From the NCBI GenBank assembly GCA_050014495.1, contig JBEKDF010000004.1, positions 32,001 through 96,000 on the forward strand: a stretch of DNA of 64,000 nt, given 5' to 3'. The stretch is from Candidatus Bathyarchaeia archaeon (lineage in GTDB: Archaea; Thermoproteota; Bathyarchaeia; TCS64). Shown here in pieces: positions 3,906 through 60,098 of the stretch; positions within the stretch are counted from its first letter, which is position 1, and each line of letters opens with the position of its first letter. The translations under genes were made by a program, and so were the position numbers. Below the pieces are notes generated by a model. The model did not search any database. It was given only the letters and a program-made list of their open reading frames with translations, and was not told the origin of the DNA.

Positions 3906-4226
3906 CTTTCACTAGAAGGCGTCGAGAAGGGTATTTAACACTAGTCGATAATGGATAAGACAAAATCGGACACGCGTTACTTATAACCATCTGTCTGGGA
4001 GAGAAAGTAAGCCTCCTCGAGAAAGAAGTAAAATTCACTCACCTTATTTCCATAAAGAAGCGGGGTTACACCCTTAACTCGCGAAGACAACCGCATGTCT
4101 TATGAAATCCGTTTAGCCGCGTCATTTGTCGTTGCCGATGTAAAATTTACTAGCAGCGCGCGCGACTACAAGGCGTTGCCTAGGTCACTTCATAGATACT
4201 TCGAGAAGCCGACGCAGGAAGAGGAA

Positions 4227-5108
4227 CTAGCCAAGTAGGTTCTGTAGATAGTCCCCTATCTTCTTTTGTACGGGTATGCCGGTTGCTTCAATAAGTGCCT
4301 TATAACCTGGGTAACAATTTGCTTCGAGGACATATGGTTTACCGTCCTCACCAGGCAGGATGTCCACTCCACATATCTTTAGCCCAGTTGCTTCTGCGAC
4401 CTCTATGGAGAGTTCATCGTAGATCGTGTCATTGAACACTTCCGCGGAACCCCCAACAGCGACGTTGTAGCGGAAATCCTCATTGTTGAACCTTCTCTCT
4501 CTTCCTACCACCTCATCATCTACGATGAGACATCGGACATCATAGCCAAGGTTTGGTACGAACTCCTGGAGGTAGTAGACACCCTGGGCGTGCTCCCTTG
4601 TGTACCAGACTAGAAATTGGAGTAGATCATCCCGCCTCCTTATACCGCTAAGCTTAGTGACTCCTATCCCCCTCGCACCACAGGTGGGCTTGAGGACAAC
4701 TTCTTTTTCCCTCTCGATGAGGTCGTGGGCGAAGGCGTACGCCTCTTCGACATTTTCCGTGGCAATTGTCTTGGGATGAGGCAGACCTAACTTGACTAAT
4801 CTCATTGTTAGCTGCTCCTTAGAATATTGGAGCATCGATTCTACCGGGTTTACCACGATTGCCTTCTTCTCTAATTCACGAAGAATCAGCAGTCTATGAG
4901 TAAGTTCGTATGTGCTCCCACGGTGAAGCATGTTGCTGGGTGCGTAGACGACTTCGGCGTCGAGATCGGGTAGGTTTGGCAGGCTGAAGTCCCAAGGTGC
5001 CATTGAGCGTACTTTAAGCCCTCTCCCTCTGAGCTCCTCTGTGACGAGTTTTACCTCCTGAACTCCAGGATTATCCGTGAATATGAGTATGCTCAAACCG
5101 GCAGCCAA
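4227..5108 (-). CDS. RimK/LysX-family ATP-grasp amino-acid ligase
   Basis: VVLKP..GARGIGV, LQEFV, FRYNVAVGG, GVDIL, VLEAN..PG. Confidence 0.85.
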   Translation of the reverse strand: MAAGLSILIFTDNPGVQEVKLVTEELRGRGLKVRSMAPWDFSLPNLPDLDAEVVYAPSNMLHRGSTYELTHRLLILRELEKKAIVVNPVESMLQYSKEQLTMRLVKLGLPHPKTIATENVEEAYAFAHDLIEREKEVVLKPTCGARGIGVTKLSGIRRRDDLLQFLVWYTREHAQGVYYLQEFVPNLGYDVRCLIVDDEVVGRERRFNNEDFRYNVAVGGSAEVFNDTIYDELSIEVAEATGLKICGVDILPGEDGKPYVLEANCYPGYKALIEATGIPVQKKIGDYLQNLLG

Positions 5109-5306
5109 ATAGGGTTGAGGTGCTTCACTTAAATTCCTTTTTAGAATAACTCAGTTATTGTTCCTTCTGCGATAATCCTGGAACGAAATTTATATAGATT
5201 ATATAGATTATGTAGGAGTATATTTTCTATGAAAGGAAATTATAAAGCTGATCGATTAGATTCGATCCTAATATCCCTTACATAACTATATACTGGAGTA
5301 GAGAAA

Positions 5307-6947
5307 ATGGCGAATCGGCTACTTGACTCAATTATGGTGAGACTCGACAAGCTGTCTTCTCACCGCGAGTCAAAGAGAGCGGTGTATATCATCGCTGTAG
5401 TCTTCCTAGTTTTCTTCATTCTGCTTCCTCCAATCCTCGGCATAACATTCGAATTAGATCTGGTCGGGCAGGTCTTCTCTAATAATGACCTTCTACTGCG
5501 AGCAGAAGCCTCGATATTCTGGTCATTCGCTATCGCGTTATCCGTGGCGACGTTAGACCTCTTAGCTGGCCTCCCCTTCGCTTGGTATATCGCTAGGAGT
5601 AAATCACGCTGGATTAATATATTGGATGCCCTTGCGGACATACCGTTCGTCATCCCGACGGTTGCACTGGGTTTTTCGACGCTGCTCTTCTGGGGTAACA
5701 CAGGACCAATCAGCGTCCTTGGGGTCTCTTTGGCTCCTGGGTTGATCCTTGTACTTTTACTCCACTTCACATTCTCCTTCCCGGTAGTTGTTAGGGTAAT
5801 GGTCGGTGAACTACTCGCGTACAACACTATCTATGAGACAGCGGCGAAGACCCTCGGGGCTCGCACGTTCACGATAGCGAGAACCGTGACCCTCCCCCTC
5901 CTCAGACCTGGATTAATAGCGGCGTTCTTACTGGCCTTCGCTAGGTCACTATCTGAAACCGGTGCAACAGTGATAGTGGCTGGTGGCTTCGAGAACGGTC
6001 CTGTCTTCATAAACAATGCCAAGAACGCTGGCCTCCAGGGTCCTATGGTCCTCGTAAGCTTCACACTCATAATATCATCTGTTACAGTCTTCGCTCTCAT
6101 CCGTCTGCTCGGTAATAGGCTGAAGATTCCGATAAACAGGGTCTATCCAAGTCCAGAAGCAAGGTTGAGCTCTGGTAGGAGCGTAAATATGAGAAACGGG
6201 CTAACCTTCTTCATCTTCGGTTTCTTCGTCCTTATCCCAGCGATCTACATCACATTCCCTACATTCACCGCGTTGACGGATGGGACGCTTCAGAGAGCGA
6301 TCTCTGGAGTAGGAGTCTGGTCCAGTTATTGGCAGTCGATGACATTCTCCTACACTATAAGCGTGCTTGTAACGTTGATTAACATAGGCTTAGGGCTACC
6401 CGTTGCCATTCTCATCGCAAGGAAGAGGCTTGGTAGGCTCTGGACGACCCTACTCGACGCCATTGTGAACGTCCCGATAGTCGTGCCTAGCGTAGCACTG
6501 GGCGTATCTCTCGGAATATTCTGGCGCTCCTTTGGTTTCCTACCAGAATTCTGGATACTCGTCTTTGCCCAGATGACAATTACATACACTTACTTTGTTC
6601 AGGCGATGGCCGCTGCGATAGAAGGAATACCTTTAGAGATGGAGGAAACAGCGAGAACTCTAGGCAGCAGGCCCTTTCATGTCTTCAGGAAAATCATTGT
6701 TCCGCTCACAAAGTATAGCTTCCTATCCGGAGCGATACTCGTCTTCACGAGAAGCCTCAACGAGACTGGCGCTGCGACCGCGGTCTCCCAGACCCTGAAG
6801 ACCTCTCCGGTGCTCTTGGTCTCCTGGATCAAGCACCAGGTGCCAGCAACACAGTCAGATATCGCATTGGGAATCGCATTCTTAGTCTTGATTTCCTTTG
6901 CCTCTCTATTAGCGCTTAGGCTCATAGTATATAGGGGGAAGAAGTGA
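5307..6947 (+). CDS. ABC transporter permease with two fused TM modules (Fe3+/thiamine/anion class)
   Basis: Two EAA loops (ETAAKTLGA, EETARTLGS); about 12 hydrophobic segments. Confidence 0.9.
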   Translation: MANRLLDSIMVRLDKLSSHRESKRAVYIIAVVFLVFFILLPPILGITFELDLVGQVFSNNDLLLRAEASIFWSFAIALSVATLDLLAGLPFAWYIARSKSRWINILDALADIPFVIPTVALGFSTLLFWGNTGPISVLGVSLAPGLILVLLLHFTFSFPVVVRVMVGELLAYNTIYETAAKTLGARTFTIARTVTLPLLRPGLIAAFLLAFARSLSETGATVIVAGGFENGPVFINNAKNAGLQGPMVLVSFTLIISSVTVFALIRLLGNRLKIPINRVYPSPEARLSSGRSVNMRNGLTFFIFGFFVLIPAIYITFPTFTALTDGTLQRAISGVGVWSSYWQSMTFSYTISVLVTLINIGLGLPVAILIARKRLGRLWTTLLDAIVNVPIVVPSVALGVSLGIFWRSFGFLPEFWILVFAQMTITYTYFVQAMAAAIEGIPLEMEETARTLGSRPFHVFRKIIVPLTKYSFLSGAILVFTRSLNETGAATAVSQTLKTSPVLLVSWIKHQVPATQSDIALGIAFLVLISFASLLALRLIVYRGKK

Positions 6948-6948
6948 G

Positions 6949-18918: not shown

Positions 18919-19896
18919 TTAGCTGCGCTTTACGATTTCCTGGAACTCGACATCTTCGAGCTCCGGGAAGAACTTTAAAACGTCCATTGCTAGACCCCTT
19001 TTAGCGATCTGGATGTTCTCGCCGAAGAATATCTCGTCGGGGATGATGATGGTCATCTTCTTCTTCCCCATTTTCTGACCGAACTTCTCGGCGTTGACAC
19101 CGACGAAGCGGCGACCGATTAAAGCGGTGACCTTCGCCTTTTCCTCCGAGATGATCTCCGTTACCTTAACGTCGTAGATGATCTTCCTGCCAGCTAATGC
19201 GTGGTTGTAGTCCACTTGGACGCGTCCAGCGCCTACGCTGCGTATAACCGCTTGTCGGCCGTCTATCTCCAACTCCGCCCCGGGTACTGGGTTGACGCCT
19301 TTACTGCGCAGAATGCGATAGGGGATCAACTGTACATTAACGGGGTCGCGCTCGCCGAATGCCTCTGCGGCCGGGATCTCTATGGATGTTTGCTCATTGG
19401 GTTTGACACCGCGTAGGCGTGCGTCGAGTCCACGTAGCACCCAGCCCTCGCCGACTACGACGAGGCGTGGGCCATAGACGTTTCCCTCACGGTGGGTGCC
19501 CTTCTCCTTTGCTACCTCCTCATTTGTAGTGTCGAAGACTTCACCGGTCTCCTCAGCCCTGCCGGTCATCTCCATGAGGATGAAGTCGCCCTTGTTTACG
19601 GCACCCTCTATACGCGGCTCCTCTGGTGGCTTCTCCTCTTTAGCCTCGACTGTAGCCCCTGTCTTCGTTTCCTCCGCGGGTTTTTCACCTGGAATCGCCT
19701 CAGCAATTGGTGCCTCAGCCTTTGATTCCTCTATGGGCTTTACATCTGAAATTGCCTCAACAACTGGGGCCTCGGTCTTCGTTTCCTCCACAGGCTTTTC
19801 ACTTGAAATTGCTTCAACTACGGGGGTCTTGACCTTGGGCTCCTCGACTGGTTTTTCTTCTGGCTTCTCCTCGATGGGCTTCTTCTCTTCACTCAT
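18919..19896 (-). CDS. Long-type FKBP peptidyl-prolyl isomerase (SlyD-like) with acidic N-terminal repeats
   Basis: VFDTT, GEGWVLRGLD, EAFGERD, VDYNHALAG. Confidence 0.9.
   Translation of the reverse strand: MSEEKKPIEEKPEEKPVEEPKVKTPVVEAISSEKPVEETKTEAPVVEAISDVKPIEESKAEAPIAEAIPGEKPAEETKTGATVEAKEEKPPEEPRIEGAVNKGDFILMEMTGRAEETGEVFDTTNEEVAKEKGTHREGNVYGPRLVVVGEGWVLRGLDARLRGVKPNEQTSIEIPAAEAFGERDPVNVQLIPYRILRSKGVNPVPGAELEIDGRQAVIRSVGAGRVQVDYNHALAGRKIIYDVKVTEIISEEKAKVTALIGRRFVGVNAEKFGQKMGKKKMTIIIPDEIFFGENIQIAKRGLAMDVLKFFPELEDVEFQEIVKRS
19633..19854 (-). repeat. About four degenerate 57-bp (19-aa) tandem coding repeats
   Basis: KPVEEPKVKTPVVEAISSE / KPVEETKTEAPVVEAISDV / KPIEESKAEAPIAEAIPGE / KPAEETKTGATVEA. 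Confidence 0.85.
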
Positions 19897-20070
19897 GGTT
19901 GAACACTCTGAGAGTCATTGCCCCCATTCCTGGGGGATTCACGCAAGGAGATGCGGAGCCCGGTTTAAAGCCTTTCTGTAAAATTTGACGGCTCTTTTCC
20001 TTTGGATGATCCACACGGTTTTTAGCCAAGGGCACTTGTCTAGTGGCGGATTGCGCGCGCCAAATGTTAC

Positions 20071-22127: not shown

Positions 22128-22665
22128 CCACATCAAGTTCACTAGACTATTGAAGTGCGCGATTTCTATGAACTTTTGTTCTAATTCATCGTCAGCAAGG
22201 CTCTTAAGCCCAGGCTAGCTTTGAGCAGTATTCGAGGGTGGAAATAGATAGGAGTTGCAACCTCCGCCCTTCTTTAAATCGATGGGGCTGAAGAGGCCCC
22301 CCAAAACTCGTTTAATATGGATCCTCTTTAGGGCTCCTTACCATAAGGAGTGTGTGCGTGAGGATCGGTACAAGTCTTAAGTACGCTATGAATCGATCGA
22401 ATTCTAAACCAGGTGTTCACGAATTGCATAGAATAACCGCGCTAATACTGGGAATCCTATGATTATCAGCGATCGCCAACTCATTAACCATTCCTAGAGC
22501 GTCAAGCGCCAGATCGCGCGCGGATTTTGTCAATTACATGAAGAGGACGAGACTCTTGATTTCAAGCGCCCCCGATTGAATTAATCTCAATCAGAGACAC
22601 TTGTTGGAAAAAAACCATTTAACATTAATGATTGATCCCTTTAACTAGTCACTAGGTGAGTCAAA

Positions 22666-26659: not shown

Positions 26660-26969
26660 CTAGATCTCAGAAAAACGTATCATCGCTGCATATTAAGATT
26701 TATACAATAATATTGGAGTAATTTCATTATAATAGTTTTTTTCATCATTGGAATTGTAATAAATACAAAAAATGATGCGAAGTTAAGAAACATGTATGGA
26801 GGCAAATTAGGATTTTTAATTGCGTTGAACATGTGCACACGAACTGTTATGAAGTTATTATTAGACCTTGTCGCTCACTATTCACAGCGATTATTTTACA
26901 TGCTTTATTCTATTTTTAAGGGGCGTTCGTGCTTGCGACACATGAATTTAGACTAGGTGATGATTGATA

Positions 26970-28073: not shown

Positions 28074-28194
28074 GTATTAAACCCCTTAGAATTTCTTTAC
28101 TGTTGGACCTGATTTTCCCCTAGTTCCATTTACTTGATTAGAATAAAATGCATTATGGATATGTAATAGCTAATACGGATTTCAAAATAATGAA

Positions 28195-28509
28195 TTGTAT
28201 ATCATGCGCGCGCGCACGTTGATTATAATTACGTCACACAATCTTACTAGAGAAGTTGACCTTATAAGTGCCACCGCAACTACCAAGAAAACCGACTATA
28301 TCGCTGTGCTAGTCGCTTACATGAGCTTCGTCGTGCTGGGGATACCAAGCGCGATGCGCGCGCGCATCGGTATAGGTGTCTTTCCCGGCATCGCAGGGGT
28401 TCTTGCCGACCGCAGTAGCTTGGAGGCAATACTCTTCGTATTATTTGCGCTGTCAATCATGATGATGATCTTATACGAGTTGACTATTCGAGCGCATTTG
28501 GGGGTGTAG
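28195..28509 (+). pseudogene. Internally deleted MFS transporter remnant (first TM fused to last TMs at a (GC)5 tract)
   Basis: N-terminal AVLVAYMSFVVLGIP joined via AMRAR to IGIGVFPGIAGVLADRSSLEAI..LYE, resembling the two ends of an MFS permease. Confidence 0.6.
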
Positions 28510-28688
28510 CGGTCATTGAAGGATCGCGTTGATGAGTTTTAGGATGCGTATACGTGCGCGTAAACTATTACCTCACGTTTACAGGACCCTATATGATAAC
28601 TCCGAGTTTTTTATATATACCGAGGTTTTCTCCAGTCTGTGATACGCGCGCGCATTTTATCTATTTGTAGGTGAGGCGCGCGCTCTGC

Positions 28689-29811: not shown

Positions 29812-30086
29812 GCGCGCGCGCACGTTTAAAATAATAATAAAATATTAATATTAAAGGGACAAAATATGTTTAAATTTCATTTATTTGATAATTTCCCATT
29901 TTTCACGTTATTTTATTCGCGTGCGTTTGTAATAAGTGAGCGTGAGTGAATAACTGGGTCAGATTTTATAGTTATCCCCACCATCTCACGTTGGTCTTCC
30001 CAAGGCGTTCGGGCAAATGTATCCAGTGAGAATCTTTATCCAGCTGTGCTTGTGTGGTAAGTCGGGTAGTCTTCTATAAGCATTTT

Positions 30087-30830: not shown

Positions 30831-30841
30831 GTCTTATCGTC

Positions 30842-32105: not shown

Positions 32106-32614
32106 CTTCCATCCCCTAAACTTGTACTATTCTCGAACGCACGCTCCGTGGACCCCATGTGAGTGGTAATCCTCCGCATGTGCGACGTGCCATTCCCGTA
32201 ATAGTCGCAGCAGAATTTTTTACTTCCTGCTTCGCTGTGTATAACGTTTCGCATGTTTATGCAATCCTTTACTCAAGTAGTCGAGTACCAGTAATTAAGA
32301 CATCCAAATTCGCCTAAATGCTATTGTATACGCTGTGTCGGGCCCACAATCTAATCTACCAGACAGCCATATAGCGTGCACGATTTACACATGTATTTTA
32401 TTTATTGGTGATATCAGTTTCGCGCGCGCATATGGATTCGAGACTGCGCGCGTGCATGGCCCCCAACCCAATGATTATTCCACTTTCTAATTCTTCCCTT
32501 CCTCTACTCATCTAATCTTCGTGCCGCGATGTATCATTAATCTGGTTTTCAGTATCTACTATTATTATAGCCTTACATTTTCCATTTTGTTTAGATATGG
32601 AGAAGAACTGATCT

Positions 32615-32794: not shown

Positions 32795-32852
32795 CTTTGC
32801 GCGCGCTGCACATGCACAGAGTTATCTATGATTCCGAACATATTCACAGTTA

Positions 32853-34297: not shown

Positions 34298-34490
34298 ATC
34301 AATAACACACTTACAGGATTTTCTTATATGTTATATAATATGTATACGCGCGCGCCACACCACCACACACCTTTGTCATCCCGGCTAAAACCATAAGCCA
34401 TCCGAGATCATCATTGCAAAATAGTTAAAGTGAAAGCTAACAAGGAAAACGTTTAAGACTAACCTGAACCTTTGCCGCCGTCGAATAAGA

Positions 34491-35930: not shown

Positions 35931-36116
35931 CAGAGCCTCGAGGTAGAACTCGTATTTCGTGCACTCGTAACTCAACAGCAGCTACCTTTGGTGACTCAAT
36001 ATCCTTATCCTAAGCTCCACCTGATACTCAAAATCTTACTACAAAGATGCTTTTGCTAAACCTCATTTAACGTACAAAAGATTCCCGCATACAAGCCGGT
36101 TTCCTTAATCATTGAT

Positions 36117-40433: not shown

Positions 40434-40656
40434 GAACTCACAGCCTAGTTAGAGGATTAATGGATTAGCGTGAAGTGATAAGTTTTCGGCTTCCAAGGAA
40501 TGCCTCATCCAGATGAGCACCCTTATTTATCATTAAAAGAGATTCAACGCTCTGCTTCATGGCATGCGCGCGCTCATGGAGGTGGGCGGGAACGCGGGGG
40601 TCACATTATTTGCCTAGTTTATCGGGGGGACGATCCCTGCCTCAAGCGTGTTAGCC

Positions 40657-44624: not shown

Positions 44625-44842
44625 CTCTTATCCGAACCAATGATTGACTTTACAAAAGTAAGTTAATTAATCTATTGAGTCCCTGCTGCCTGGCTTACCC
44701 CAGTGCGCGCGAGAGAGTCAGTCAATAATTTAGGTATAATATGCGTGTGTGCGCGCGGAGTTAGGAGAAATTAAGATGATAGGAGTCTTTGGAAATTTGA
44801 AATATGCGGAAAAAGAAATGATTGTGATGTAAAATTTTATGA

Positions 44843-46729
44843 CTACGGTTTGTCGGTAATTGCTTCAACGCCCTTCTCTTCTTTGAATTGCATCTTGTAG
44901 AATGAGCTGTATAGTCCATTAAGCTTCATTAGTTCAAAGTGTGATCCCTTCTCGACGATTCTCCCAAGATCTATGACCAGGATCTCATCACACAGCCTGA
45001 TCGTTGAGAGTCTGTGGGCTATTATTATGGCCATCCTGTTTTCAAGGAGTTTCTTCAATGCGTTCTGTAACACCAGTTCGGTGTAGGGGTCTATGCTTGA
45101 GGTGGCCTCGTCCAGGATCAATAGCTTGGGGTTCAGTAGAAGGGTTCTTGCGAAGCTTATCAGCTGTCTCTGCCCTATCGAAATATTTGATGAACCTTCT
45201 TGTATGATGTAGTCGTATCCACCTGGTAGTCTCATTATGAATTCGTGTGCGCCGACGGTCTTAGCTGCCTCAATCACCGCCTCATCGGATGCGCCGGGTT
45301 TTCCGAATCTTATGTTATCCTTTACGCTTATGGCAAATAGGAAGGAGTCCTGGAGAACCGTGCTCATGTTACTGCGAAGAGATGCAATCGTTATGTCCTT
45401 GATGTCGTGTCCGTTTACGAGTATTCTCCCACCAACGGGGTCGTAGAACCTCTCCAGGAGATTGATTATTGTGCTCTTGCCAGCGCCCGTGGGTCCGACT
45501 ATGGCCAGCTTCTTTGACCCTTCTAAGTCTAGGTTTACGTCGTGTATGACTGGGTTTTGAGGGTCGTATCCGAAGGTGACATCCTCAAATTTCACATCGT
45601 TTATCGTATCAATTACTACCGCCTTGTCGGGTGAAGGATCATCCACTTCAACTTTAGTGTCTATTAAGTCGAAGATTCTTTCTAATGCGGACATGCATGA
45701 CTGGTATTGGTCGTATGCGGTTAGGAAGGTGGTGAGTGGCCCGAAGTAGTTGAATTGGTACTCTAAGAATGCTGCGAGTATTCCTAAGTTGATCTGTCCG
45801 TTTATGACGAGTATTGTGCCGTACCATAGTATTAGTATCGTTCCAATAATCCTCATAGTCATTATGAGTGGTGTGTATATTGTTGATAGGAGGATGGTGC
45901 GTTTGTATGATTGAACAGTCTTTTTGTTAACTTCATCGAATTCTTTTTCGGCCTTATCTTCTTTTACGAATGCTTTTATAATCTTCATTCCTGCGAAGTT
46001 CTCTTGCATCTTGGCAATCAAGCCTGCAAGATTTGTGAGAGTTCTCCTATACTGTTTTCTTGATAGTCCTCCCATGATCCATGTCATGATTACTGCTATT
46101 GGAAGGATTGAGACTGCGAGTAGTGCAAGTTGCCAGTTTAGGAAGAATATTATTACCAGGGCACCTGCTATTGAGGCTGCATCCAGAATCATCGCCGTTA
46201 ATCCCATTCTTAGAAATATTCTGACCTGGTTTGCGTCTGTTGTTGGCCTTGACATTATGCGCCCGATCTCGCCTTCTGAGAAGTATTTTAGTGATATTTT
46301 CTGTAATTTGACAGTGCACTGGTTTCTAAGGTTCATTACGACGTGTTCACCGACTATTCTCATCTGATATATCTGAATATATTGGAAGACGTAGGTTGCT
46401 ACTGTTACCCCGATGAATAGAGGGACCCACCAGATGAACGCTGAGATATAGGAGCTGTCGTGATTCTGTATTGTTGGGGTTATTATATCGTTTATGGCGA
46501 TTAGGTGGAGGTATGGTGTGACAAGCCCTGTGAATGCACCTCCGGCGATGGCGATTGTGCCCAGTATCAAGTTCTTCTTGTAGGCTATTATGTACTCATA
46601 GAGCCTACCGATTAGAACTCTATCAGCGACTTTTCTCTTCCCTCTCTCCTCCACTTTTGTTGAGAAGGTATTATGTTCGTCAGACAATTTATTGATCGAC
46701 CTCCAGTATCTCTTCTGGGGTCTTCTCAA
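44843..46729 (-). CDS. ABC exporter ATP-binding/permease subunit
   Basis: TM domain; GPTGAGKS, ISIGQRQ, ILDEATS, AHRLST. Confidence 0.95.
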   Translation of the reverse strand: MRRPQKRYWRSINKLSDEHNTFSTKVEERGKRKVADRVLIGRLYEYIIAYKKNLILGTIAIAGGAFTGLVTPYLHLIAINDIITPTIQNHDSSYISAFIWWVPLFIGVTVATYVFQYIQIYQMRIVGEHVVMNLRNQCTVKLQKISLKYFSEGEIGRIMSRPTTDANQVRIFLRMGLTAMILDAASIAGALVIIFFLNWQLALLAVSILPIAVIMTWIMGGLSRKQYRRTLTNLAGLIAKMQENFAGMKIIKAFVKEDKAEKEFDEVNKKTVQSYKRTILLSTIYTPLIMTMRIIGTILILWYGTILVINGQINLGILAAFLEYQFNYFGPLTTFLTAYDQYQSCMSALERIFDLIDTKVEVDDPSPDKAVVIDTINDVKFEDVTFGYDPQNPVIHDVNLDLEGSKKLAIVGPTGAGKSTIINLLERFYDPVGGRILVNGHDIKDITIASLRSNMSTVLQDSFLFAISVKDNIRFGKPGASDEAVIEAAKTVGAHEFIMRLPGGYDYIIQEGSSNISIGQRQLISFARTLLLNPKLLILDEATSSIDPYTELVLQNALKKLLENRMAIIIAHRLSTIRLCDEILVIDLGRIVEKGSHFELMKLNGLYSSFYKMQFKEEKGVEAITDKP

Positions 46730-48554
46730 GGAACTGTGTCTCGTATATTTTCTTGTATACCCTTCCTTTAGCCATCAGTTCGTTATGTGTTCCAAACTCG
46801 ATGATTTCACCATTATCAAGAACCATTATTCTATCGGCATTCTTTATTGTTGAGAGTCTCTGGGCGATTATGAAGCATGTTCTACCCTTCAAAGCTTCAT
46901 CGATTGCATCTTGTATTGCCTGTTCAGTCTTTGCGTCCACGAATGAGAGTGAGTCATCTAGGATCAGGATCTTGGGGTTCGTTAACAGGGCTCTTGCGAT
47001 CGTCAGTCTTTGTTTTTGGCCACCTGAAAGCGTTACCCCTCTCTCCCCCACTGGTGTATCATACCCATCTGGGAGTGTCTCAATGAAGTCATCTATCTTA
47101 GCCATCTTTGCTGCAGATTTGACCTCATCGAGGGATGCGTCGTCTCTTCCGAATGCAATATTACTTCTTATTGTGCCTGAGAATAAGAATACGTCTTGAA
47201 GGACTAATCCTACCTGTTTTCTCAGGAAGGAGACGTTAAAATCCCTGATGTCTGTTCCATCTATTAATATGCTCCCTGAGTTGATGTCATAGAATCGTGG
47301 GATAAGATATACTATAGATGTTTTTCCAGTTCCTGTGGCGCCGAGAATGGCTATTTTTTCCCCTGGTTCAGCCTTGAAACTGATGTTTTTTAGTATAGGT
47401 CTGTCCTTAACGTATCCGAAGGTCACGTCTCGGAATTCAACTTCTCCTTTTTCTATCTTGACGTCTTTTGCATCTGGTCTGTTTACAACGTCTCCAGGCA
47501 GATCGATTATATCGAAGAGTCTTTCGGATGCTGCCGTTGCGTTGTTAAGACCACCTATAAAGGAAAGCGCAAAATCGCGAATAGGCCCGGTCGCTCTCAT
47601 AACATACCTCGCATAGATCAGAATCAGACCCAGTGATAATCCTAAAGATAATATCATATTCGTCCCGTAGACGTAGACAAATGTGATGCTCAGCGTTAGG
47701 ATGGCCGTTGCAGAAGGCATGTATGTTGCTTGAAACTTTCCTGCTCTGATTGCAATATCGACGTATTTTTCATTAATTTCTCTATCACCTTCCTGCATTT
47801 CGTCTTCTCTTTGGAATATTCGGATATTTTTCATTCCTACGATGTTCTGTTGTACATAGGAGCCGATTCGTCCTAGGATTAGCTGCATCTTTCTGAAGAG
47901 AGGCATCGTAAGCATGAAGTTCTTGGACTGGAAATAGAATATGAAGGGTATGGGTATCATCGCTATTAAAGCCATGACTGGATTTAATGTATAACATACC
48001 CAAAATACGAAGATCAACGTGAAAACAAGATTAGTTAAGGTGCTGACCCAGACTCTGAGGAATCCATCGACGAACATCAGTTCCTGCGTTGGCCTCGAGG
48101 TAAGGTCTCCCACAGGATTGATGTCAAAAAATGTGAAGGATTTTTCTTGGCATGATCTGTAGTATTCCTTTCTTATATTTCCCATAACCATCTGCGAGAC
48201 GATGCCATTTAGGTATACGATTATCCAATTGGCTATTGCGAAACCTACTACCGCCAAAAATATGTACAGGAGTAAAGTTGGAAGAAGAGTAACATTACTA
48301 GTTGCTGGAGGGTTACTTCCAATGACGTAATCTATGAGTTGAGCAGTATATAGAGGCTCAAGAAGAAATAAGAACGATCTTAAGATAGCTAGCGCAGAAA
48401 TGAAGGCGATGATAGGAACATAGGGTTTATGATAGACCATGAGTCTTTTAAAAGCCTTTATTTGAGTAGAGAGAGCTTTTCGATTCTCCTCAATGGAATC
48501 GATATACCTAAGTATCGGTTTGGCGACAGCCATTTTTAGGACTTCGTTAAACAA
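46689..48554 (-). CDS. ABC exporter ATP-binding/permease subunit (degenerate-site partner of a heterodimer)
   Basis: GATGTGKT, LSGGQKQR, ILDDS and AQR replace the canonical DE and H. Confidence 0.95.
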   Translation of the reverse strand: MFNEVLKMAVAKPILRYIDSIEENRKALSTQIKAFKRLMVYHKPYVPIIAFISALAILRSFLFLLEPLYTAQLIDYVIGSNPPATSNVTLLPTLLLYIFLAVVGFAIANWIIVYLNGIVSQMVMGNIRKEYYRSCQEKSFTFFDINPVGDLTSRPTQELMFVDGFLRVWVSTLTNLVFTLIFVFWVCYTLNPVMALIAMIPIPFIFYFQSKNFMLTMPLFRKMQLILGRIGSYVQQNIVGMKNIRIFQREDEMQEGDREINEKYVDIAIRAGKFQATYMPSATAILTLSITFVYVYGTNMILSLGLSLGLILIYARYVMRATGPIRDFALSFIGGLNNATAASERLFDIIDLPGDVVNRPDAKDVKIEKGEVEFRDVTFGYVKDRPILKNISFKAEPGEKIAILGATGTGKTSIVYLIPRFYDINSGSILIDGTDIRDFNVSFLRKQVGLVLQDVFLFSGTIRSNIAFGRDDASLDEVKSAAKMAKIDDFIETLPDGYDTPVGERGVTLSGGQKQRLTIARALLTNPKILILDDSLSFVDAKTEQAIQDAIDEALKGRTCFIIAQRLSTIKNADRIMVLDNGEIIEFGTHNELMAKGRVYKKIYETQFLEKTPEEILEVDQ

Positions 48555-48887
48555 TAATCGATTTGTAATTACTTATAGGGTTATCGTTTAGGATAACTGA
48601 GTAGCATGGACTCAAATTGCATAAATGTGCGCGCTTTTTTACATCATTTGACTGAAAAGCATTACAAATCAGAAGCGACCGTATAACACTTCGAGTAAGA
48701 GCTCATTCCGGTCTTCACCCTGTCCCCATGCACGAATAGACTCACTCAACTTTGAGTTACTGCTGACGCGCGTATGGGTAGTGGTTTCTGAGAATGTACC
48801 AGTGTCTGAGTTTTAGAATTTCTAAATAACACAGTGCTGGTTTAGTAAACTTGAAATATGTAGGGCTGAATTACACATAAATCATCG

Positions 48888-48995
48888 GTGGTAGACTTGT
48901 CGAAACGGCTTGAAGGCTTTGTATATTACTTTCTGAGCGTTGTTGTTGTGGTTATAGTCGTTGTTCTCATAACCTCCATTAATATTGCGGCATAA
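48888..48995 (+). CDS. Possible single-TM micropeptide (35 aa)
   Basis: MVDLSKRLEGFVYYFLSVVVVVIVVVLITSINIAA. Confidence 0.35.
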   Translation: MVDLSKRLEGFVYYFLSVVVVVIVVVLITSINIAA

Positions 48996-49069
48996 AGGCA
49001 GGCGCGCGTGGAAGTTTAGCTCAAATTGTATGCATAAGTTTATTAAAATTGAAAAATTAATTAAAATTA

Positions 49070-49666
49070 ATGGAGTCCTCTTCTAGATTTTCGATTTTCG
49101 TTATCATATTGGTGCTCAGTGCTATTTTAGGATTAGTTGAGGGTTTTGCTATATGCTATATCTTCTCATATAATTCATCATATCTGGCGGCTACACTCGG
49201 TTTCGGTCTTCTATTGGTTGGTAGCTCGGTTTGGCTCTACTATTATTTCAAAAAAGTTGAACCCCATTCCTTGAATGGTATGAAGTTGGCACCCTTGATG
49301 CATAGGCCCATTGCCCGAGAATTTGTGAGTGTTGACACTACAGTCCTTAGGATTCCAATGTCTCTCCTGGAGGCCCAGGAGGGTAGAGAACAACTCGTAG
49401 ACGTAATTGATGATAAGGACACCATTCGTGTTGTAGCTGAGCTTCCAATCGTTGGTGTGAATGATGTCAACTTCGACTGTTTAGGAAGGATGCTCACGAT
49501 ATACTTCGACATTGGGAATTATAGATACTATAAGGAGATTGGGCTTCCGTTTGCAGTTTATTCCAAAAATGGTAAGGTAAAATTACGTAATTGGATCGTT
49601 GAATTAGATTTGACGAAGATTAAAGTAGAGAATTCTGAGGAAAGCCATCTGAAGCAAGAGCTATGA
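49070..49666 (+). CDS. Membrane-anchored Hsp20/alpha-crystallin-like protein
   Basis: Two N-terminal TMs; VDVIDDKDTIRVVAELP, YYKEIGLP, RNWIVELDLTK resemble the archaeal sHsp core. Confidence 0.65.
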   Translation: MESSSRFSIFVIILVLSAILGLVEGFAICYIFSYNSSYLAATLGFGLLLVGSSVWLYYYFKKVEPHSLNGMKLAPLMHRPIAREFVSVDTTVLRIPMSLLEAQEGREQLVDVIDDKDTIRVVAELPIVGVNDVNFDCLGRMLTIYFDIGNYRYYKEIGLPFAVYSKNGKVKLRNWIVELDLTKIKVENSEESHLKQEL

Positions 49667-49822
49667 CTATTTAAGAATGAACTCTCGCGCGCGGATGGTA
49701 AAAAGTTATGTGCGTGCACTTTTTAATAATTGAAACCAATGGCTCTGTTTTCTTGATGTATTTCTATCTGGCTTGTCGTGTAGTCGGTGGTCTTTAATTT
49801 GGGGTTGAAGTAAAAATATTCT

Positions 49823-50457: not shown

Positions 50458-50714
50458 TTTAAGTCGAATTGGATTCAGCTGTTAGTGTTGATTAAATTTG
50501 TGATTACGCGCGCGTGACTGTTTAAGAATGAGATAAATTAGTGTTCAATGTTGTGTTCTGTCTTATCACTAAATTTATAATAAATTTATCTAGGCAATAA
50601 GGTTCGGCGTCATCCTATGAGGCGATATAGGCAGTTGATACGATTAATAAACATGTAATATAAGGAAACAGTCGGTGAATAGTTTTAAGCGTTAAATCCT
50701 CTGGCATCGCACCG

Positions 50715-53446: not shown

Positions 53447-55753
53447 TTGTGGATAGTCACTAGAAGAAGAGCCGTCATTACGACGACACAAGCATTGATC
53501 ATAATCCTAGCCGCATTTATGGTCGGAGTAGGCGTTAGCCTAAGTGGCGTCCTCACAACAAACAACGCGGGAAATAGAGTTGGGGGGACAACACAGCAAA
53601 ACACAAGCGTTAACGTGACCAATCCACAGCAAACGATCCCTACCCAGAACACGACTTTACCAAATAAAACAAACACGTCAAACTCCACAACCCAGAAACC
53701 GGCTAATAATAAACAGACGATAAACTACACGCTGACGGTCGAGGCACCGGATGGGAAAGGCACCCAAAACCTAGAAGAGGGCATTCACTACTACCCGGCG
53801 AACAGTACGGTTCAGGTATACGCAAACTCTTCGCTTGGCTGGGAGTTCACATACTGGACACTTGATAACCAGAAGGAGGTCGGGAACCCGATCACAGTCA
53901 CGATGAATGCACCGCATACCCTTAAGGCGATGTTCACGGAGACCCGATACAACCTCACGATCACCATTGAAGGGTCAGGAACAACAGACCCGGTCCCTGG
54001 AATACACTCCTACGCCAAAGGAGCTGACGTGACGGTAAACGCGACGGCGGCTGAGGGATGGCAATTCAAATGTTGGACACAGAATAGCGAGAACACCACT
54101 ACAAATCCAATAAAGATAAGCGTAAACCGAGACACCGAGCTGAAGGCCACATTCATAGAAACCTCGGCGCAACCCGCTCCAGTGCCACCGATGCCCACCC
54201 CCTCCTCGAACTACACACTCACAGTGAACACCGTGGGCCAGGGCAGCGTAGCCAGGAACCCAAGCAAAGCATCCTACTCAACAGGTGAAAGCATCCAACT
54301 CACCGCAACGCCGGCTACTGGCTACACATTCACGGGGTGGAGCGGCGACGCCTCCGGCTCAAGCAACCCGCTGACCGTGTCGATAACCGGGAATATGATA
54401 ATCACAGCAACATTCGACCTTACCCAATACACGGTGACCTCCTCGGCTGGCTCCGGTGGCTCCATCTCGCCCCTGGGCGCCACTCAGGTGACTCAGGGCT
54501 CCACTCAGGCATTCACCATCACAGCGAACACCGGGTACTTGGTGTCTAGCGTCGTTGTTGATGGGTTTTCAGTCGGGGTCGTGTCCAGTTATACCTTCAG
54601 CAATGTTCAGGCTGACCATACGATAGCGGCCACCTTCGCCCAGATCCAGTACACGGTCACCGTGAACACCTCCGGCCAGGGGACGGTGGCCAAGAGCCCG
54701 AGCCAGTCGACCTACCACTACGGGGACTCGGTTCAGCTTCAGGCTACTCCCTCCGCTGGCTGGGTCTTTTCAGCATGGAGCGGAGCCTTGACGGGCTCGG
54801 TTAACCCCTCCACTTTGACGGTGAACGGGAACATGGATGTCACGGCCAGCTTCACGCTGACCCAATTCACCATTACTTCCTCAGCGGGTTCAGGTGGCTC
54901 CATCTCCCCAAGCGGGGGCGTGGTCGTCAGCTACGGTTCGAGTCAGGCATTCACCATCTCTCCCAGCACCGGGTACCAGGTTTCGGATGTGCTTGTTGAC
55001 GGCGTCTCGGTGGGGGCGGTGTCTAGCTACACCTTCAGCGGCGTGCAGGTCGACCATACCCTCTCCGCCACATTCGCCCCGATCCAGTTCACAATCACGG
55101 CCTCAGCGGGCTCGGGTGGCTCAATCTCACCCAGCGGTAGTTTAGTCGTTAACTACGGTGGCAGCCAGAGCTACACGATCACTGCGAACACGGGTTACTC
55201 AGTGTCCAGTGTCGATGTAGATGGGTCGTCTGTTGGTGCGGTGACGAGCTACCAGTTCAGCAATGTTCAGGACAACCACACGATAACGGCCAGCTTCGCG
55301 CTGCTGGCCCAGTTCACCATCACCTCCTCAGCTGGCTCAGGTGGCTCGATCTCGCCCCTGGGCGCCACTCAGGTGACTCAGGGTGGGAGCCAGGTCTACA
55401 CGATTTCTCCCAGCACCGGGTACCAGGTTTCGGATGTGCTTGTTGACGGCGTCTCGGTGGAGGCGGTGTCTAGCTACACATTCAGCAGCGTTCAGGATAA
55501 CCACACCATAGTGGCCAGCTTTACCCAGACAGTTTGCACGCTCTCCATCATGGTCAGTCCGACGGATGGGGGCACCGTGTCAACCAGCATATCTCCTCCG
55601 TATCACTACGGGGACGTGGTAACACTCACGGAGTCCCCCGGCGCTGACTACACGTTCTCATCGTGGTCAGGTGACGGCTTGGGGACAGACACGACTTGCA
55701 CAATCACCATCATGGGAAACATGGCCGTGACCGCCACATTCACGTTAAATTAA
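53447..55753 (+). CDS. Cell-surface protein with multiple InlB B-repeat-like beta-sandwich repeats
   Basis: N-terminal TM and N/T/Q linker; repeats YTLTV..G.G.V..P..Y..G..V.L.ATP..GY.F..WSG and ITSSAGSGGSISP. Confidence 0.85.
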   Translation: MWIVTRRRAVITTTQALIIILAAFMVGVGVSLSGVLTTNNAGNRVGGTTQQNTSVNVTNPQQTIPTQNTTLPNKTNTSNSTTQKPANNKQTINYTLTVEAPDGKGTQNLEEGIHYYPANSTVQVYANSSLGWEFTYWTLDNQKEVGNPITVTMNAPHTLKAMFTETRYNLTITIEGSGTTDPVPGIHSYAKGADVTVNATAAEGWQFKCWTQNSENTTTNPIKISVNRDTELKATFIETSAQPAPVPPMPTPSSNYTLTVNTVGQGSVARNPSKASYSTGESIQLTATPATGYTFTGWSGDASGSSNPLTVSITGNMIITATFDLTQYTVTSSAGSGGSISPLGATQVTQGSTQAFTITANTGYLVSSVVVDGFSVGVVSSYTFSNVQADHTIAATFAQIQYTVTVNTSGQGTVAKSPSQSTYHYGDSVQLQATPSAGWVFSAWSGALTGSVNPSTLTVNGNMDVTASFTLTQFTITSSAGSGGSISPSGGVVVSYGSSQAFTISPSTGYQVSDVLVDGVSVGAVSSYTFSGVQVDHTLSATFAPIQFTITASAGSGGSISPSGSLVVNYGGSQSYTITANTGYSVSSVDVDGSSVGAVTSYQFSNVQDNHTITASFALLAQFTITSSAGSGGSISPLGATQVTQGGSQVYTISPSTGYQVSDVLVDGVSVEAVSSYTFSSVQDNHTIVASFTQTVCTLSIMVSPTDGGTVSTSISPPYHYGDVVTLTESPGADYTFSSWSGDGLGTDTTCTITIMGNMAVTATFTLN

Positions 55754-57768: not shown

Positions 57769-58005
57769 AAAGAGAATGATGCGCGCTTGGGATTAAGCGT
57801 GCGTCTGCAGCTTTCCTCCTGAATGAGGACCCGTGCGTGCATACGATGATTTAAAGAATCGATTGACTGAGGTAGAGTTGTGGTCCGATGGCTAGGTTTT
57901 TGAGGTATAAGGTTGTCGGCGCGCGCGCAATCCGCGGTTACCTTTTTTCGTCGAATAGGTTTACGAGTCGATAGTCTAATGATTTAACTTAACGTGGGTT
58001 AAGAT

Positions 58006-59184: not shown

Positions 59185-59218
59185 TTTACTCCCTTTTTAA
59201 AAAAAGCTTTTATGGTAA

Positions 59219-59971
59219 ATGACAAATAAGAAAAAACACGGCAATTCTAACGGATGAGGAAAAGCAAGGGATACGCGCAAGAGCCAATATAATTGTTGGT
59301 AACAATGAGAGTTTAAAAAATAAGGAAATTGAATTACAAGCAGCATTGCGAATAATAGAGAAACTGCTAGGAATAAACTGGTATAGCAAGGCCTGGGAAA
59401 ACAATTCTACATTTCGCGCGCGCGAACGATAAACATCCCAAAACTTCCAGAGAAATCAACAGTCGTCCAATACTCCGAAGAGACTTACCAAATGCGTGAC
59501 TCTTATCCCATAGATGTCAATATAATGTCTAAAATCTGGGCGAGAGAGATTGATTTACCAGTCTCTAACTATAGGCGAGTAGTGATTTATTCACCATTTA
59601 TGGCAACTAAATCTCAAAGCGTCTTGCACTCCATTGAGGACGCAAGTAATCAACTTCTGAAATCAAGCGGGTATGGTATTGTGGCGATTGACATATCAGA
59701 CATCTTGCGTACTAAAGAAGATGAAGAAAAAATTCAAAAAGAGCTTTCTGAGGTTGTCAACTGTTTATCTGAGCGGTTTGAGAGTATGCCTCATGTTAGT
59801 GCGATATTGTTCTTTTTTACACAAAGAATCATGAAAGATGAACATATTAAGCTATTCACTAAGATTTTAATGTGTTCAAATCTTTTAGCAACCCACAGAT
59901 TACCTCCTGATATGAAGGAAGCTTTGAAGAAGGGCGGAGAGATTGGTTATAAGTCCTTGCTTGACGAATAA
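59219..59971 (+). pseudogene. Disrupted hypothetical gene; N- and C-terminal parts joined out of frame at (CG)5
   Basis: N part ..TAILTDEEKQG..WENNST ends just after 59415-59424; frame of the 59492 ORF is open back through the tract. Confidence 0.5.
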
Positions 59972-59987
59972 TATTTTCTTGTCGCTT

Positions 59988-60068
59988 CTAGACGTTTACG
60001 TGTCCTTTGATTGTTTTCTCCCATTCAGATTGTGTTAGTACACCTTTCTTTTCCAGTAGTTCTACAAG
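59988..60068 (-). pseudogene. C-terminal remnant of a small protein beginning at (GC)5
   Basis: LVELLEKKGVLTQSEWEKTIKGHVNV*. Confidence 0.5.
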
Positions 60069-60098
60069 GCGCGCGCGCATTGGGGTTATAAGGACTCA

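Follow-up and report, generated by a model that had tools for sequence, protein, structure and literature searches.

Non-homologous end joining (NHEJ) scars, as described, consist of one or a few arbitrary letters, and the fillers at polymerase-theta end joining, at T-DNA integration and among V(D)J N/P nucleotides are copied from nearby, random, or palindromic to the flank. Excision footprints are left by the cut-and-paste transposons Tc1/mariner, hAT and PIF/Harbinger, which are relatives of IS5. In cyanobacteria, HIP1 is frequent within genes and tied to cognate methyltransferases; it belongs to the highly iterated palindromes of that group, which were reportedly treated by Elhai in 2015. 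Archaeo-prokaryotic NHEJ, with Ku, LigD polymerase, phosphoesterase and ligase, has been described in Methanocella and mycobacteria (PMC4797286; PMC8656161). Terminal-transferase activity is reported for archaeal plasmid and cellular AEPs in PMC3973330 and for LigD POL in PMC8656161.

Here we show that, in the genome of a peat archaeon, joined DNA ends carry an alternating GC run, mostly found in neither parent sequence. Joints of several types have such a run, namely deletion, gene truncation, capture of a short fragment and arrival of a cassette, and each end supplies only 0-2 nt, fitting the register by chance. Since most of each run is in neither parent, the tracts resemble written repair scars. 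We give a probability of about 0.55 to reading the (GC)n tracts as junction scars, with AEP-type end joining proposed as the route by which they are written. Such tracts would record where DNA had been cut or lost, captured or rejoined, and an undescribed form of end joining would have written them.

Number, length and placement of the tracts

The window, by which we mean the whole stretch of 64,000 nucleotides that was analysed, belongs to a 3.11 Mb assembly that is 96% complete (hereafter G000), and holds 33 maximal alternating C/G runs of at least 6 nt (ten of 6 nt, six of 7 nt, seven of 8 nt, four of 9 nt and six of 10 nt). The first-pass annotation of this DNA had claimed at least 17 CG tracts of 8 nt or more; exactly 17 were counted, all 8-10 nt long, against about 1 expected. 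Its six 10-mers were confirmed at 28206, 28356, 29812, 57919, 59415 and 60069, all 13 of its listed 6-7 nt copies were found, and three 6-mers (720, 35205 and 57056) were added. The claimed excess over chance held up against 100 dinucleotide-preserving shuffles of the window: GCGCGCGC has 19 matches compared to a mean of 0.65, and CGCGCGCG has 14 compared to 0.38, numbers that 0/100 shuffles reached in either case. As had also been proposed, none of the 17 tracts lies inside a long intact gene of the ORF list, and the only tract-containing ORFs in the window are at 28195-28509 (104 aa) and 34143-34388 (81 aa). The statement that the flanks share no consensus stood in part: no strong one is present, but a weak A-T|tract|A-T preference was seen.

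The feature is not local to the window. Genome-wide, we counted 459 tracts of at least 8 nt, 381 of them (83%) intergenic, and no other dinucleotide alternation showed comparable enrichment in the whole assembly. Each tract has a (GC)3-5 core, and the alternating run as a whole is limited to 10 nt, with a sharp stop (111 ten-mers and only 5 eleven-mers in the genome); 12-mers are rare in 18/18 genomes of the genus. This strict 10-nt limit was counted against the main reading. Variants with one mismatch, mostly transitions, number about 17-20 per internal position compared to 99 intact tracts, and are counted as tract decay. Of 17 congeners, 15 also have tracts, some of them with assemblies in as few as 6 to 30 contigs, and counts per genome range from 0 to about 150 across one genus. 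They are common to several lineages; outside the family, loci sampled over about 90 kb are the basis for regarding it as one phenomenon, and there the flank preference is A|tract|T compared to T|tract|A in G000.

Junctions at the tracts

A paralogue match within 200 nt was present for 223 of the 459 tracts in G000. Homology stopped at 105 of these tracts and crossed one, whereas three control sets of 459 matched random sites gave 20-28 ending (about 24) and 54-70 crossing (about 63), and 398 intergenic non-alternating GC 8-mers gave 30 ending and 62 crossing. The enrichment of tracts at breakpoints is thus strong genome-wide, and it is also seen in the window, where between 20001 and 60400 an HSP end lies within 8 nt of the tract in 7 of 16 cases (10.7% expected; binomial P = 7.5e-4). 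The 4156 and 20053 tracts provide two further seams. The claimed cuts or fusions of reading frames were confirmed at 4156, 28206, 28356, 29812 and 57919.

The 9-nt tract at 4156..4164 is a deletion junction, where homology to G002, G008, G009, G011 and G017 restarts at 4155-4164. At this site G002 has about 3.4 kb extra, with genes for an ABC ATPase and an ABC-2 permease, a small ORF and the gene of a PALP enzyme of 365 aa. The final 24 codons and stop of the latter remain in the window on the plus strand (4164..4238), where they align with the 3' end of the G002 gene (L011:8204-9301; PF00291); the whole upstream part is gone, cut at the tract. Synteny with G002, G012 and G008 spans 1-20053 and halts at an 8-nt tract (20053..20060), beyond which these three genomes continue together for at least 50 nt. 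Tracts are absent from the orthologous sites in the same three genomes and are therefore not a conserved motif, and no flanking duplication or inverted repeat was found beside tracts.

Two 10-mers enclose exactly a captured fragment of 140 nt (28216..28355), which has 74% identity to G011:C80 (L059:377-518; HSP 28217-28357). At the left seam (28206..28215) the G011 homologue begins 2 nt past the tract and continues upstream without any tract. The right tract (28356..28365) joins two unrelated fragments, and both parental sequences are known: on its far side lies, on the plus strand, a gene fragment truncated at the tract (28366..28489), with 75% identity to G016:C10 (L058:390-515), where the gene extends upstream. 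In G016 and in the strain of run X12 the site reads ...GGCGGCCG|GCATCGG, without the tract. The left fragment (G011) accounts for the first GC of the tract and the right one (G016, X12) for the last GC, as templates; the GCGCGC between these has no counterpart in either parent. A third 10-mer (29812..29821), upstream of ORF 28689-29690, is the centre of a nested strain deletion: in a contig of run X12, which comes from a different metagenome and a related strain, 517 nt are missing and positions 29379 and 29897 are linked through CGCGCGCG. This 517-bp deletion, closed by CGCGCGCG, is recent activity, and its nesting over a tract that already exists in the window needs either a break at that tract plus new synthesis, or two successive events, a demand that was counted against the main reading.

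A two-gene ABC-transporter cassette on the minus strand (44828..49673; 88-90% identity to G002:C34 and G012:C6) is bracketed by 7-mers at 44705 and 44751 and, at its right edge, by an 8-mer (49686..49693), near which HSPs end at 49673 and 49675; it is missing in the G002:C44 arrangement, which matches both sides. At the 10-nt tract at 57919..57928 a conserved segment of 81 nt comes to its end: the G015:C1 HSP ends at 57919, and past this point G015 has unrelated sequence without a tract. HSP limits also lie near the 8-nt tracts at 22515..22522 (paralogue G000:C52, ending at 22508, 7 nt off), 32799..32806 (G011:C57, starting at 32812, 6 nt off) and 50507..50514 (G002:C44 and G016:C10, both ending at 50500, 7 nt off), and near the 9-nt tract at 34347..34355 (paralogue G000:C24, ending at 34342, 5 nt off). 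Independent contigs span the 9-nt tract at 28645..28653, which has no adjoining homologue, as X4 and X8 contigs do the 8-nt tract 22 nt away (28676..28683); an X8 contig (30947-34368) spans the 9-nt tract at 32421..32429, which is followed 16 nt onward by a 7-mer, with 0 differences. The 10-mers at 59415..59424 and 60069..60078 are intergenic and have no adjoining homologue. For the 8-nt tract at 40566..40573, which lies between two oxidoreductase genes, breakpoint evidence was looked for and none was found.

Junction sides with a tract-free homologue (n = 49) were scored for templating, and the number of templated tract letters was 0 on 15 sides, 1 on 21, 2 on nine, 3 on one, 4 on two and 5 on one. 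Three internal deletions (170, 322 and 452 bp) relative to collinear paralogues carry tracts of 8-10 nt, which the paralogue does not have, and deletions relative to paralogues, orthologues and the sister strain contain 6-10 parentless tract letters plus 0-2 nt of microhomology. In G016, about 410 bp of a gene are replaced by tract-IS-tract, and the orthologue is intact in G000 (C1:28448-29743), without GCGCGC. Taken together, the intact alleles of G002, G011, G016, G015 and the X12 strain read on without a tract where the window copy stops, and the first-pass proposal of (CG)n scars at joined DNA ends is supported, in that the self-complementary run is in neither parent.

Proposed writing of the tracts and rival explanations

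We propose that an AEP-superfamily primase-polymerase would add G and C in alternation to 3' ends or, alternatively, would supply a (GC)5 unit of about 10 nt. The self-complementarity of (GC)n would let any pair of ends so treated anneal, and a ligase would then close the joint. A scar, once in place, serves again in several respects. Copies of an IS5-family element and of its MITEs are always bracketed by GCGCGC, at a fixed register, and this GCGCGC is most simply seen as a target duplication of 6 bp. An IS110-like element enters between a tract and the end of the IS5-family element, and a tract can become the centre of a later deletion. A primase/polymerase-dependent route is plausible and unproven. 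G000 encodes two candidate writers, a small PriS-like AEP (C53:7058-7861) and a Ku-LigD operon with LigD polymerase (C3:64.2-67.5 kb), and the small PriS-like primase-polymerase, which co-occurs with tract-rich genomes of several lineages, is the best lead. In genus g48, extra AEP ORFs of 297-299 aa occur in 3/3 tract-rich and 0/7 tract-poor genomes, and two further tract-poor genomes hold other extra AEPs. The G000 homologue has 41-44% identity to the g48 AEP, and G000 also holds three fragments of that AEP gene, each adjoining a tract. Of 20 small-AEP loci, taken from 15 MAGs that belong to several lineages, 17 contain GCGCGCGC, with 82 matches over about 304 kb, a density that may only reflect location in rearranged DNA; in the tract-rich G243, a search for the small AEP detected none. 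The AEP links to tracts are co-occurrences among related genomes, and (GC)n synthesis by any enzyme is putative.

The rival that survives best, although we consider it unlikely, derives the tracts from the IS5-family element, with solo tracts as the remains of excision, or of IS-mediated deletion plus element loss. The element's register is fixed (...GCGC|TGSC every time), and a run of at least 6 nt directly adjoins 35 of 44 matches to its terminal repeat in G000 and 22 of 35 element ends in G012, G016, G002, G007 and G011. The sole GCGCGCGC of G001 adjoins a remnant of the element, terminal-repeat and 10-mer counts are correlated across 18 genomes (Spearman 0.60), 34 tracts lie within 300 nt of contig ends compared to 11.6 expected, and two overhangs of 5-6 nt that overlap by at least 2 nt would yield 6, 8 or 10 nt. 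However, among the 2251 flanks belonging to tracts of at least 6 nt, about 55 resemble the terminal repeat; no transposase relative was found in the tract-bearing G003 and G017, nor in G036, G425, G243 and G283, and the one DDE_Tnp_1 element of G036 has an ordinary TTAG duplication without a tract. Furthermore, junctions arise where the parent has no GCGCGC, solo tracts have no flanking duplication and, apart from direct flanks, do not cluster near element copies, and flank lengths differ between sibling copies (6, 6, 8, 8 and 9).

It is somewhat more doubtful that classical Ku-LigD NHEJ writes the tracts, by a lineage-specific habit of its polymerase domain. The operon is complete in G000, with Ku, LigD-Pol and a ligase+PE fusion all scoring over curated cut-offs; Ku and LigD-Pol each occur in 15/18, and (GC)5 in 16/18, other family genomes, compared to 0/12 outside the family for all three (order/class sample). 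Of the family genomes, the 11 whose G000-type polymerase is uninterrupted have more 10-mers for their size than the remaining 8 (Mann-Whitney P = 3e-4, uncorrected for kinship), and in G012, where all three NHEJ genes are apparently frameshifted and the neighbouring genes intact, 10-mers are few. Microhomology of 1-2 nt with non-templated letters is, as established and as described in PMC8656161, typical of Ku-LigD NHEJ. Nevertheless, the within-genus association of polymerase and density is confounded by kinship, and G001 and G010 possess the operon, with Ku and a 52-53% identical polymerase, yet have one GCGCGCGC each and no tract enrichment. A phylum sample of 401 genomes has only 13 with Ku, and 11 of the 12 besides G000 contain at most three (GC)5/(CG)5. 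Tract-rich lineages outside the family are without Ku (G036, G067, G099, G425, G243 and G231) and, in the first five, which were those searched for it, without LigD-Pol. Phylum-wide, Ku is neither necessary nor sufficient for tracts.

Less probable again is an alternative akin to the hot spots of the first-pass annotation, by which tracts pre-exist as Z-DNA-prone or nuclease-targeted fragile or recombination sites where rearrangements start or end. It is partially supported, as the X12 deletion shows that an existing tract (29812) can centre a later deletion; tracts also cluster (30 gaps below 100 nt compared to 14 expected), IS5-family and IS110-like elements insert at them, and purine-pyrimidine alternation continues 2-3 nt past their ends beyond chance. 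In intact alleles of the truncated genes, however, the breakpoint has no tract, a single crossing among 223 would be unexpected if tracts were old residents of their sequences, and fragile sites explain neither the origin of 459 tracts nor the 10-nt limit.

That the tracts are a host motif under selection, as a site for protein binding, a terminator or an insulator, or else a HIP1-like palindrome driven by methylation, is very improbable. Although the tracts are palindromic, with one-letter variants biased to the ends, largely intergenic (381/459), and of higher density in convergent spacers and up to 30 nt from stop codons, they are missing from orthologous positions in G002, G012 and G008, vary from 0 to about 150 per genome inside one genus and occur at truncation points within dead genes and dead IS copies, and searches of the 96%-complete genome found neither a C5-methyltransferase nor Vsr. 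Artefacts of assembly, amplification or sequencing, to which the enrichment near contig ends might point, can be dismissed, given that 24 runs from as many studies hold the stretch wholly or partly (11 of them at least half its sampled words), that contigs of X4, X8 and X9 cross tracts with 0 differences, answering the first-pass doubt about spanning, that 15/17 congeners have the same feature, and that tracts are shorter than any assembler word.

Comparison with known systems

The reading of the tracts as written junction scars can be set beside several described systems. Archaeo-prokaryotic NHEJ is similar in that G000 has the full gene set, with a polymerase that is an AEP with terminal-transferase activity (a property of the class), and in that its joints show 0-2 nt of microhomology, sequence loss and letters from neither parent. 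Unlike NHEJ scars, the G000 joints are a defined alternating GC run of at most 10 nt, and Ku and tracts do not coincide across the phylum. Joints of polymerase-theta end joining, T-DNA integration and V(D)J recombination share with those of G000 the extra letters, microhomology, target deletion, absence of target-site duplication and capture of elements with filler at both sides; the filler in G000, in contrast, is one fixed self-complementary repeat regardless of flanks. Excision footprints resemble the tracts as short palindromic remains, and ends of the IS5-family element touch the repeat, but the tracts have no flanking duplication, occur also in genomes without the element, and lie at deletion and fragment-capture joints where the parent has no target. 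Like HIP1, they are a GC-rich palindrome hugely over-represented, variable among relatives and with variants biased to the end letters; unlike HIP1, they are 83% intergenic and located at seams, with no C5-methylase or Vsr found.

Primase-polymerases with untemplated end extension, and DRT3, which writes alternating dinucleotides, bear a likeness to the proposed tract writer. DRT3 is, however, a reverse transcriptase making poly(GT/AC), not (GC)n, for phage defence, and (GC)n writing or a part in chromosomal end joining is reported neither for it nor for such primase-polymerases. No reverse transcriptase was found in the present analysis. Telomere repeats come from a telomerase RNA template and their arms face each other, whereas the G000 repeat is its own complement; in interstitial telomeric sequences, as in G000, a defined repeat on DNA ends, followed by joining, gives a short symmetric seam that records the break.

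Abundance, length and placement of the GC tracts

We searched the source assembly, G000 (3.11 Mb in 92 contigs, 49.3% GC), for alternating C/G runs, which we call tracts when they are at least 8 nt long. In the window (G000:C4:32001-96000) this search returned 33 runs of at least 6 nt, 17 of them 8-10 nt long; the six 10-mers fell at the positions given in the first-pass annotation, and the ORF list confirmed its impression that no long gene contains any of the 17 tracts. Matches to GCGCGCGC numbered 19 in the window compared to 0.65 expected from dinucleotide-preserving shuffles, and matches to CGCGCGCG numbered 14 compared to 0.38; none of 100 shuffles reached either count. The whole assembly holds 459 tracts, of which 192 are 8 nt, 144 are 9 nt, 111 are 10 nt, 5 are 11 nt and 4 are 12 nt long, with one each of 13, 16 and 18 nt. 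The scarcity of 12-mers extends throughout the genus (18 of 18 genomes), and we found no other dinucleotide alternation in G000 that behaves in the same way.

The intergenic placement held when coding and non-coding DNA were counted genome-wide: ORFs of at least 100 aa make up 82% of the bases of G000, and 381 of the 459 tracts lie outside them and 76 inside. Most tracts begin with G and end with C (146 versus 46 among 8-mers, 78 versus 33 among 10-mers), and their flanks favour A-T both before and after the tract. Clustering across the assembly is mild, and 34 tracts lie within 300 nt of contig ends compared to 11.6 expected. One-letter variants of the 10-mer are chiefly transitions, at about 17-20 per internal position beside 99 intact copies, and we therefore conclude that tracts decay. 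The length of alternating CG would also be sufficient for a candidate Z-DNA-forming element.

Homology ends at the tracts

Positions 1-20053 of the window share synteny and about 80% identity with three relatives (G002, G012 and G008). The tract at 20053 is the exact end of this homology, and the three relatives continue together past that point. At the tract at 4156, about 3.4 kb present in G002 is missing from the window; this segment carries an ABC ATPase, an ABC-2 permease, a small ORF and a 365-aa PALP enzyme gene, of which the window retains only the last 24 codons, beginning at the tract. Beyond 20053 the window has a mosaic make-up, with different stretches corresponding to loci dispersed in the genomes of relatives, and the end of a local alignment lies within 8 nt of 7 of the 16 tracts there (10.7% expected, P = 7.5e-4). 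The enrichment at breakpoints that the first-pass annotation had proposed is also seen genome-wide. A paralogue lies no more than 200 nt from 223 of the 459 tracts; homology stops at the tract in 105 of these and continues to the other side in 1, compared to 20-28 ending and 54-70 crossing at matched random sites, and 30 ending and 62 crossing at intergenic non-alternating GC 8-mers. Furthermore, 33 of 220 long-repeat ends have a tract within 14 nt, versus 0.86% of random positions.

Deletions of 170, 322 and 452 bp relative to collinear paralogues are each closed by a tract of 8-10 nt that the paralogue lacks. For the joint at 28356 we could identify both parents: the left one ends in ...GATGC (in G011), the right one begins with GCATCGG... 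(in G016 and in the related strain X12), and GCGCGC stands between them; the 10-mers at 28206 and 28356 enclose a captured piece of 140 nt. Cuts of this kind, where a homologue ends at a tract absent from the other genome, occur at 57919 and also within G011 and within G002. Across 49 junction sides, the number of tract letters shared with the continuing homologue was 0 in 15, 1 in 21, 2 in 9, 3 in 1, 4 in 2 and 5 in 1. Microhomology of 1-2 nt is thus above the roughly 25% per letter due to chance, a figure that is our estimate rather than a computed control, and judged from these letters it is far short of accounting for tracts of 8-10 nt. No direct or inverted repeats were found around the 459 tracts of G000. 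The analysis as a whole shows that the tracts are sequence-defined seams, mostly non-templated, recent and decaying.

The first-pass annotation had allowed for assembly chimeras. Contigs of three other metagenome runs (X4, X8 and X9) cross tracts with no difference, evidence that consists of contigs rather than raw reads and hence carries no allele frequencies. Window positions 26000-34000 are held whole or in part by 24 runs from 24 studies of peat, wetland, soil and freshwater, and 11 of the 24 contain at least half of the sampled words from this segment. In X12, which diverges by a few percent, position 29379 is joined to 29897 by CGCGCGCG, which replaces 517 nt that include the window tract at 29812; the same strain is without the tract at 28356, and its sequence there continues like the G016 gene. 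Separately, at 35995-36028 the contigs of X4, X8 and X9 break with identical loose ends on both sides, which points to a polymorphic insertion or an alternative population allele.

The seam at 20053 also cuts a conserved non-coding element. It occupies 19897-20052, upstream of the gene at 18919-19896, with 84-94% identity across the genus, above that of the surrounding coding DNA, and it is hundreds of bases longer in the relatives (G002 L012:6088-6307; G012 L013; G008 L016). Neither this element (19.8-20.05 kb) nor its G002 counterpart matched an Rfam family, and a tRNA scan of the window found none. The sole Rfam match in the window is a DUF3800-X RNA at 60409-60480 on the plus strand (RF02984, 48.9 bits, gathering threshold 38.2). 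Two further features were recorded in the mosaic region. A two-gene ABC-transporter cassette (44828-49673) matches loci of G002 and G012 at 88-90% identity compared to about 80% for core genes, a hint of recent transfer between species. The gene at 53447-55753 encodes a 768-aa protein with seven InlB B-repeat (Flg_new_2) units, and the DNA of these repeats has many tandem counterparts on G016:C25 and G016:C22.

Insertion sequences at the tracts

The main rival explanation is that the tracts originate from an IS5-family element. This element is 1.28 kb long, encodes DDE_Tnp_1 (PF01609, 51.5 bits) with an N-terminal DUF772 domain (PF05598, 37.8 bits), and carries TGSCYYGTCCCKAAA as a terminal inverted repeat at both ends; its MITEs end likewise. 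Element and MITE ends touch a GC run of at least 6 nt in 35 of 44 cases in G000 and 22 of 35 in five relatives, in a constant register wherever a run is touched, and an origin from the element accounts for the tracts at its flanks. However, it leaves tract-rich genomes without the element unaccounted for, and joints occur at sites without a target. Relatives of the transposase were not found in G003, G017, G036, G425, G243 or G283, which are MAGs and possibly incomplete. Nor do the tracts show the target-site duplication that would mark an excision footprint: direct repeats 1-7 nt long, compared between the two sides of the 459 tracts, do not exceed the shuffled expectation.

GCGCGC on both sides in constant register would most simply be read as a 6-bp duplication of a GCGCGC target. 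Under such a duplication, 3 of 9 complete copies need targets of 11-12 nt, a rare length; sibling copies have unequal flank lengths and no duplication beyond the tract. In G016, one copy together with its two tracts stands in place of about 410 bp of a gene. The G000 version of this gene is intact and lacks GCGCGC, and the arrangement in G016 fits either insertion into an older scar or capture with filler. Dead copies are themselves cut at tracts. In an empty-site comparison, the right flank of the copy at C5 had no homologue in the relatives. In addition, an IS110-family element (DEDD_Tnp_IS110 with Transposase_20) is inserted precisely between the GC tract and the IS5-family terminal repeat in three species (G000:C17:57461-58785, L052; G012 L018 and L019; G016 L026), which suggests that this junction is a programmed target of the IS110-family element. 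These would be two insertion sequences specialised for landing on repair scars.

Candidate enzymes and proposed mechanism

We infer that the writer is a primase-polymerase adding or supplying alternating GC, for which the enzymes described here are candidates only. One is a small member of the primase-polymerase (AEP) superfamily resembling the archaeal primase PriS. In the genus g48, the three tract-rich genomes have extra AEP ORFs of 297-299 aa; among its tract-poor genomes, seven have the canonical primase only and two have other extra AEPs. A distant small AEP is present in G425, and none was detected in tract-rich G243. The G000 homologue (268 aa, 41-44% identity, G000:C53:7058-7861) contains the AEP core (PF01896, 27.8 bits, cut-off 26.8), and its profile matches the archaeal PriS structures 1G71 and 1V33 over the core (E = 1e-7); a fold model from a 4-sequence alignment was too poor for use (pLDDT 37.8). 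Three fragments of the gene in G000 each abut a tract. Scanning one genome per species for the protein pattern gave 20 such loci, which belong to 15 MAGs from Bathyarchaeota, Brockarchaeota, Nitrososphaerota and Thermoproteota. GCGCGCGC occurs in 17 of the 20 (82 matches in about 304 kb), whereas core syntenic loci gave 3 matches in about 150 kb. These tract-dense loci may just be rearranged DNA, and the link to the AEP is one of co-occurrence. On one complete chromosome, the gene lies among ordinary neighbours and encodes a zinc ribbon at the C terminus; no relatives were found in viral contigs. Terminal-transferase and template-independent extension activities are described for other archaeal AEPs in PMC3973330.

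Within G000:C53:5783-7861, a weak tyrosine-integrase-like ORF (PF00589, 19.7 bits, below cut-off) lies beside the small AEP. Contig C53 has 43.7% GC and no tract of at least 8 nt, and the contamination of G000 is 7.5%; C53 may represent an element that has integrated, or it may come from another organism.

The other candidate is the LigD polymerase. Contig G000:C3 encodes Ku, LigD polymerase, ligase and phosphoesterase at one locus, the last two fused, with scores (cut-offs) of 253 bits (150) for TIGR02772, 250 (214.7) for TIGR02778, 279 (227.75) for TIGR02779 and 196 (144) for TIGR02777. A DUF72 gene (G000:C3:63437-64237; L039:5437-6237) overlaps the start of the ligase/phosphoesterase gene, as if within the NHEJ operon. 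Within the order and class sample, (GC)5 is present in 16 of 18 other family genomes and 0 of 12 outside the family, and Ku-LigD is distributed in parallel (15 of 18 and 0 of 12). Where a G000-type polymerase is uninterrupted (11 genomes), the density of 10-mers exceeds that in the other 8 (P = 3e-4, among kin that are not independent). In G012 (C6:592000-598000, L054) the LigD polymerase, Ku and ligase/phosphoesterase genes are each split into two ORFs beside intact neighbours, namely a 443-aa gene and syntenic core genes, and this operon is probably dying.

Ku-LigD as the sole writer is contradicted by a phylum scan of 401 genomes, in which (GC)5 was found in 70 and Ku in 13. Eleven of the 12 Ku-positive genomes besides G000 have at most 3 tracts, and Ku was not found in the tract-rich, moderate-GC genomes G036, G067, G099, G425, G243 and G231, nor LigD polymerase in the five of these searched (all except G231). 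About 90 kb sampled from tract-rich Ku-less genomes showed chiefly intergenic 10-mers in AT-rich DNA, with A before the tract and T after it; the flank preference in other lineages is opposite to that of G000. The apparent richest genome, G065, with 180 ten-mers, reflects compositional bias and is a different phenomenon, because its GC content is 60%, its tracts are located inside ORFs, and tract length fades smoothly to 14 nt.

Several other explanations were set aside. A terminator or promoter element would suit the lean of tracts to stop codons, yet orthologous spacers have no conserved tract. A REP or MITE family is opposed by a flank consensus of only one or two letters and by flank clusters confined to IS ends. 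A HIP1-type, methylation-driven palindrome lacks both C5-methylase (PF00145) and Vsr (PF03852) in G000, as well as the HIP1-type frequency inside coding sequence, and a reverse-transcriptase writer lacks RVT_1 there. A PolX search of G000 gave a single weak match, on contig C47.

A bolder reading, to which we give a probability of roughly 0.3, is that broken DNA receives a capped (GC)5 "universal sticky end" from a primase-polymerase that is dedicated to this task and inherited patchily, and that the scars later become landing sites for insertion sequences. The enzyme would add or supply alternating GC so that ends can anneal; with (GC)5 sticky ends any pair of ends could anneal, followed by ligation. 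Each joint would leave a permanent, countable record, and the scars would be turned into private landing sites for the IS5-family and IS110-like elements. Most archaea rejoin broken chromosomes without Ku, and the tracts would reflect a sequence-defined end-joining system of archaea without Ku. Joints are labelled by a fixed sequence, and therefore deletions, fragment captures, cassette arrivals and IS landings become countable in genomes and metagenomes, datable through tract decay and comparable across strains. The signature further suggests enzymes to test, the small PriS-like AEP and the LigD polymerase; if either writes alternating GC untemplated, this would be a new polymerase activity and, if true, a simple natural route to cohesive DNA ends of any sort. 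In the literature searched (titles and abstracts), we found nothing relevant on an archaeal tract or a GCGCGC insertion-sequence target. Among known systems, the joints in G000 and its relatives resemble the scars of Ku-LigD (AP-NHEJ) repair, with which they share short microhomology, sequence loss and non-templated letters.
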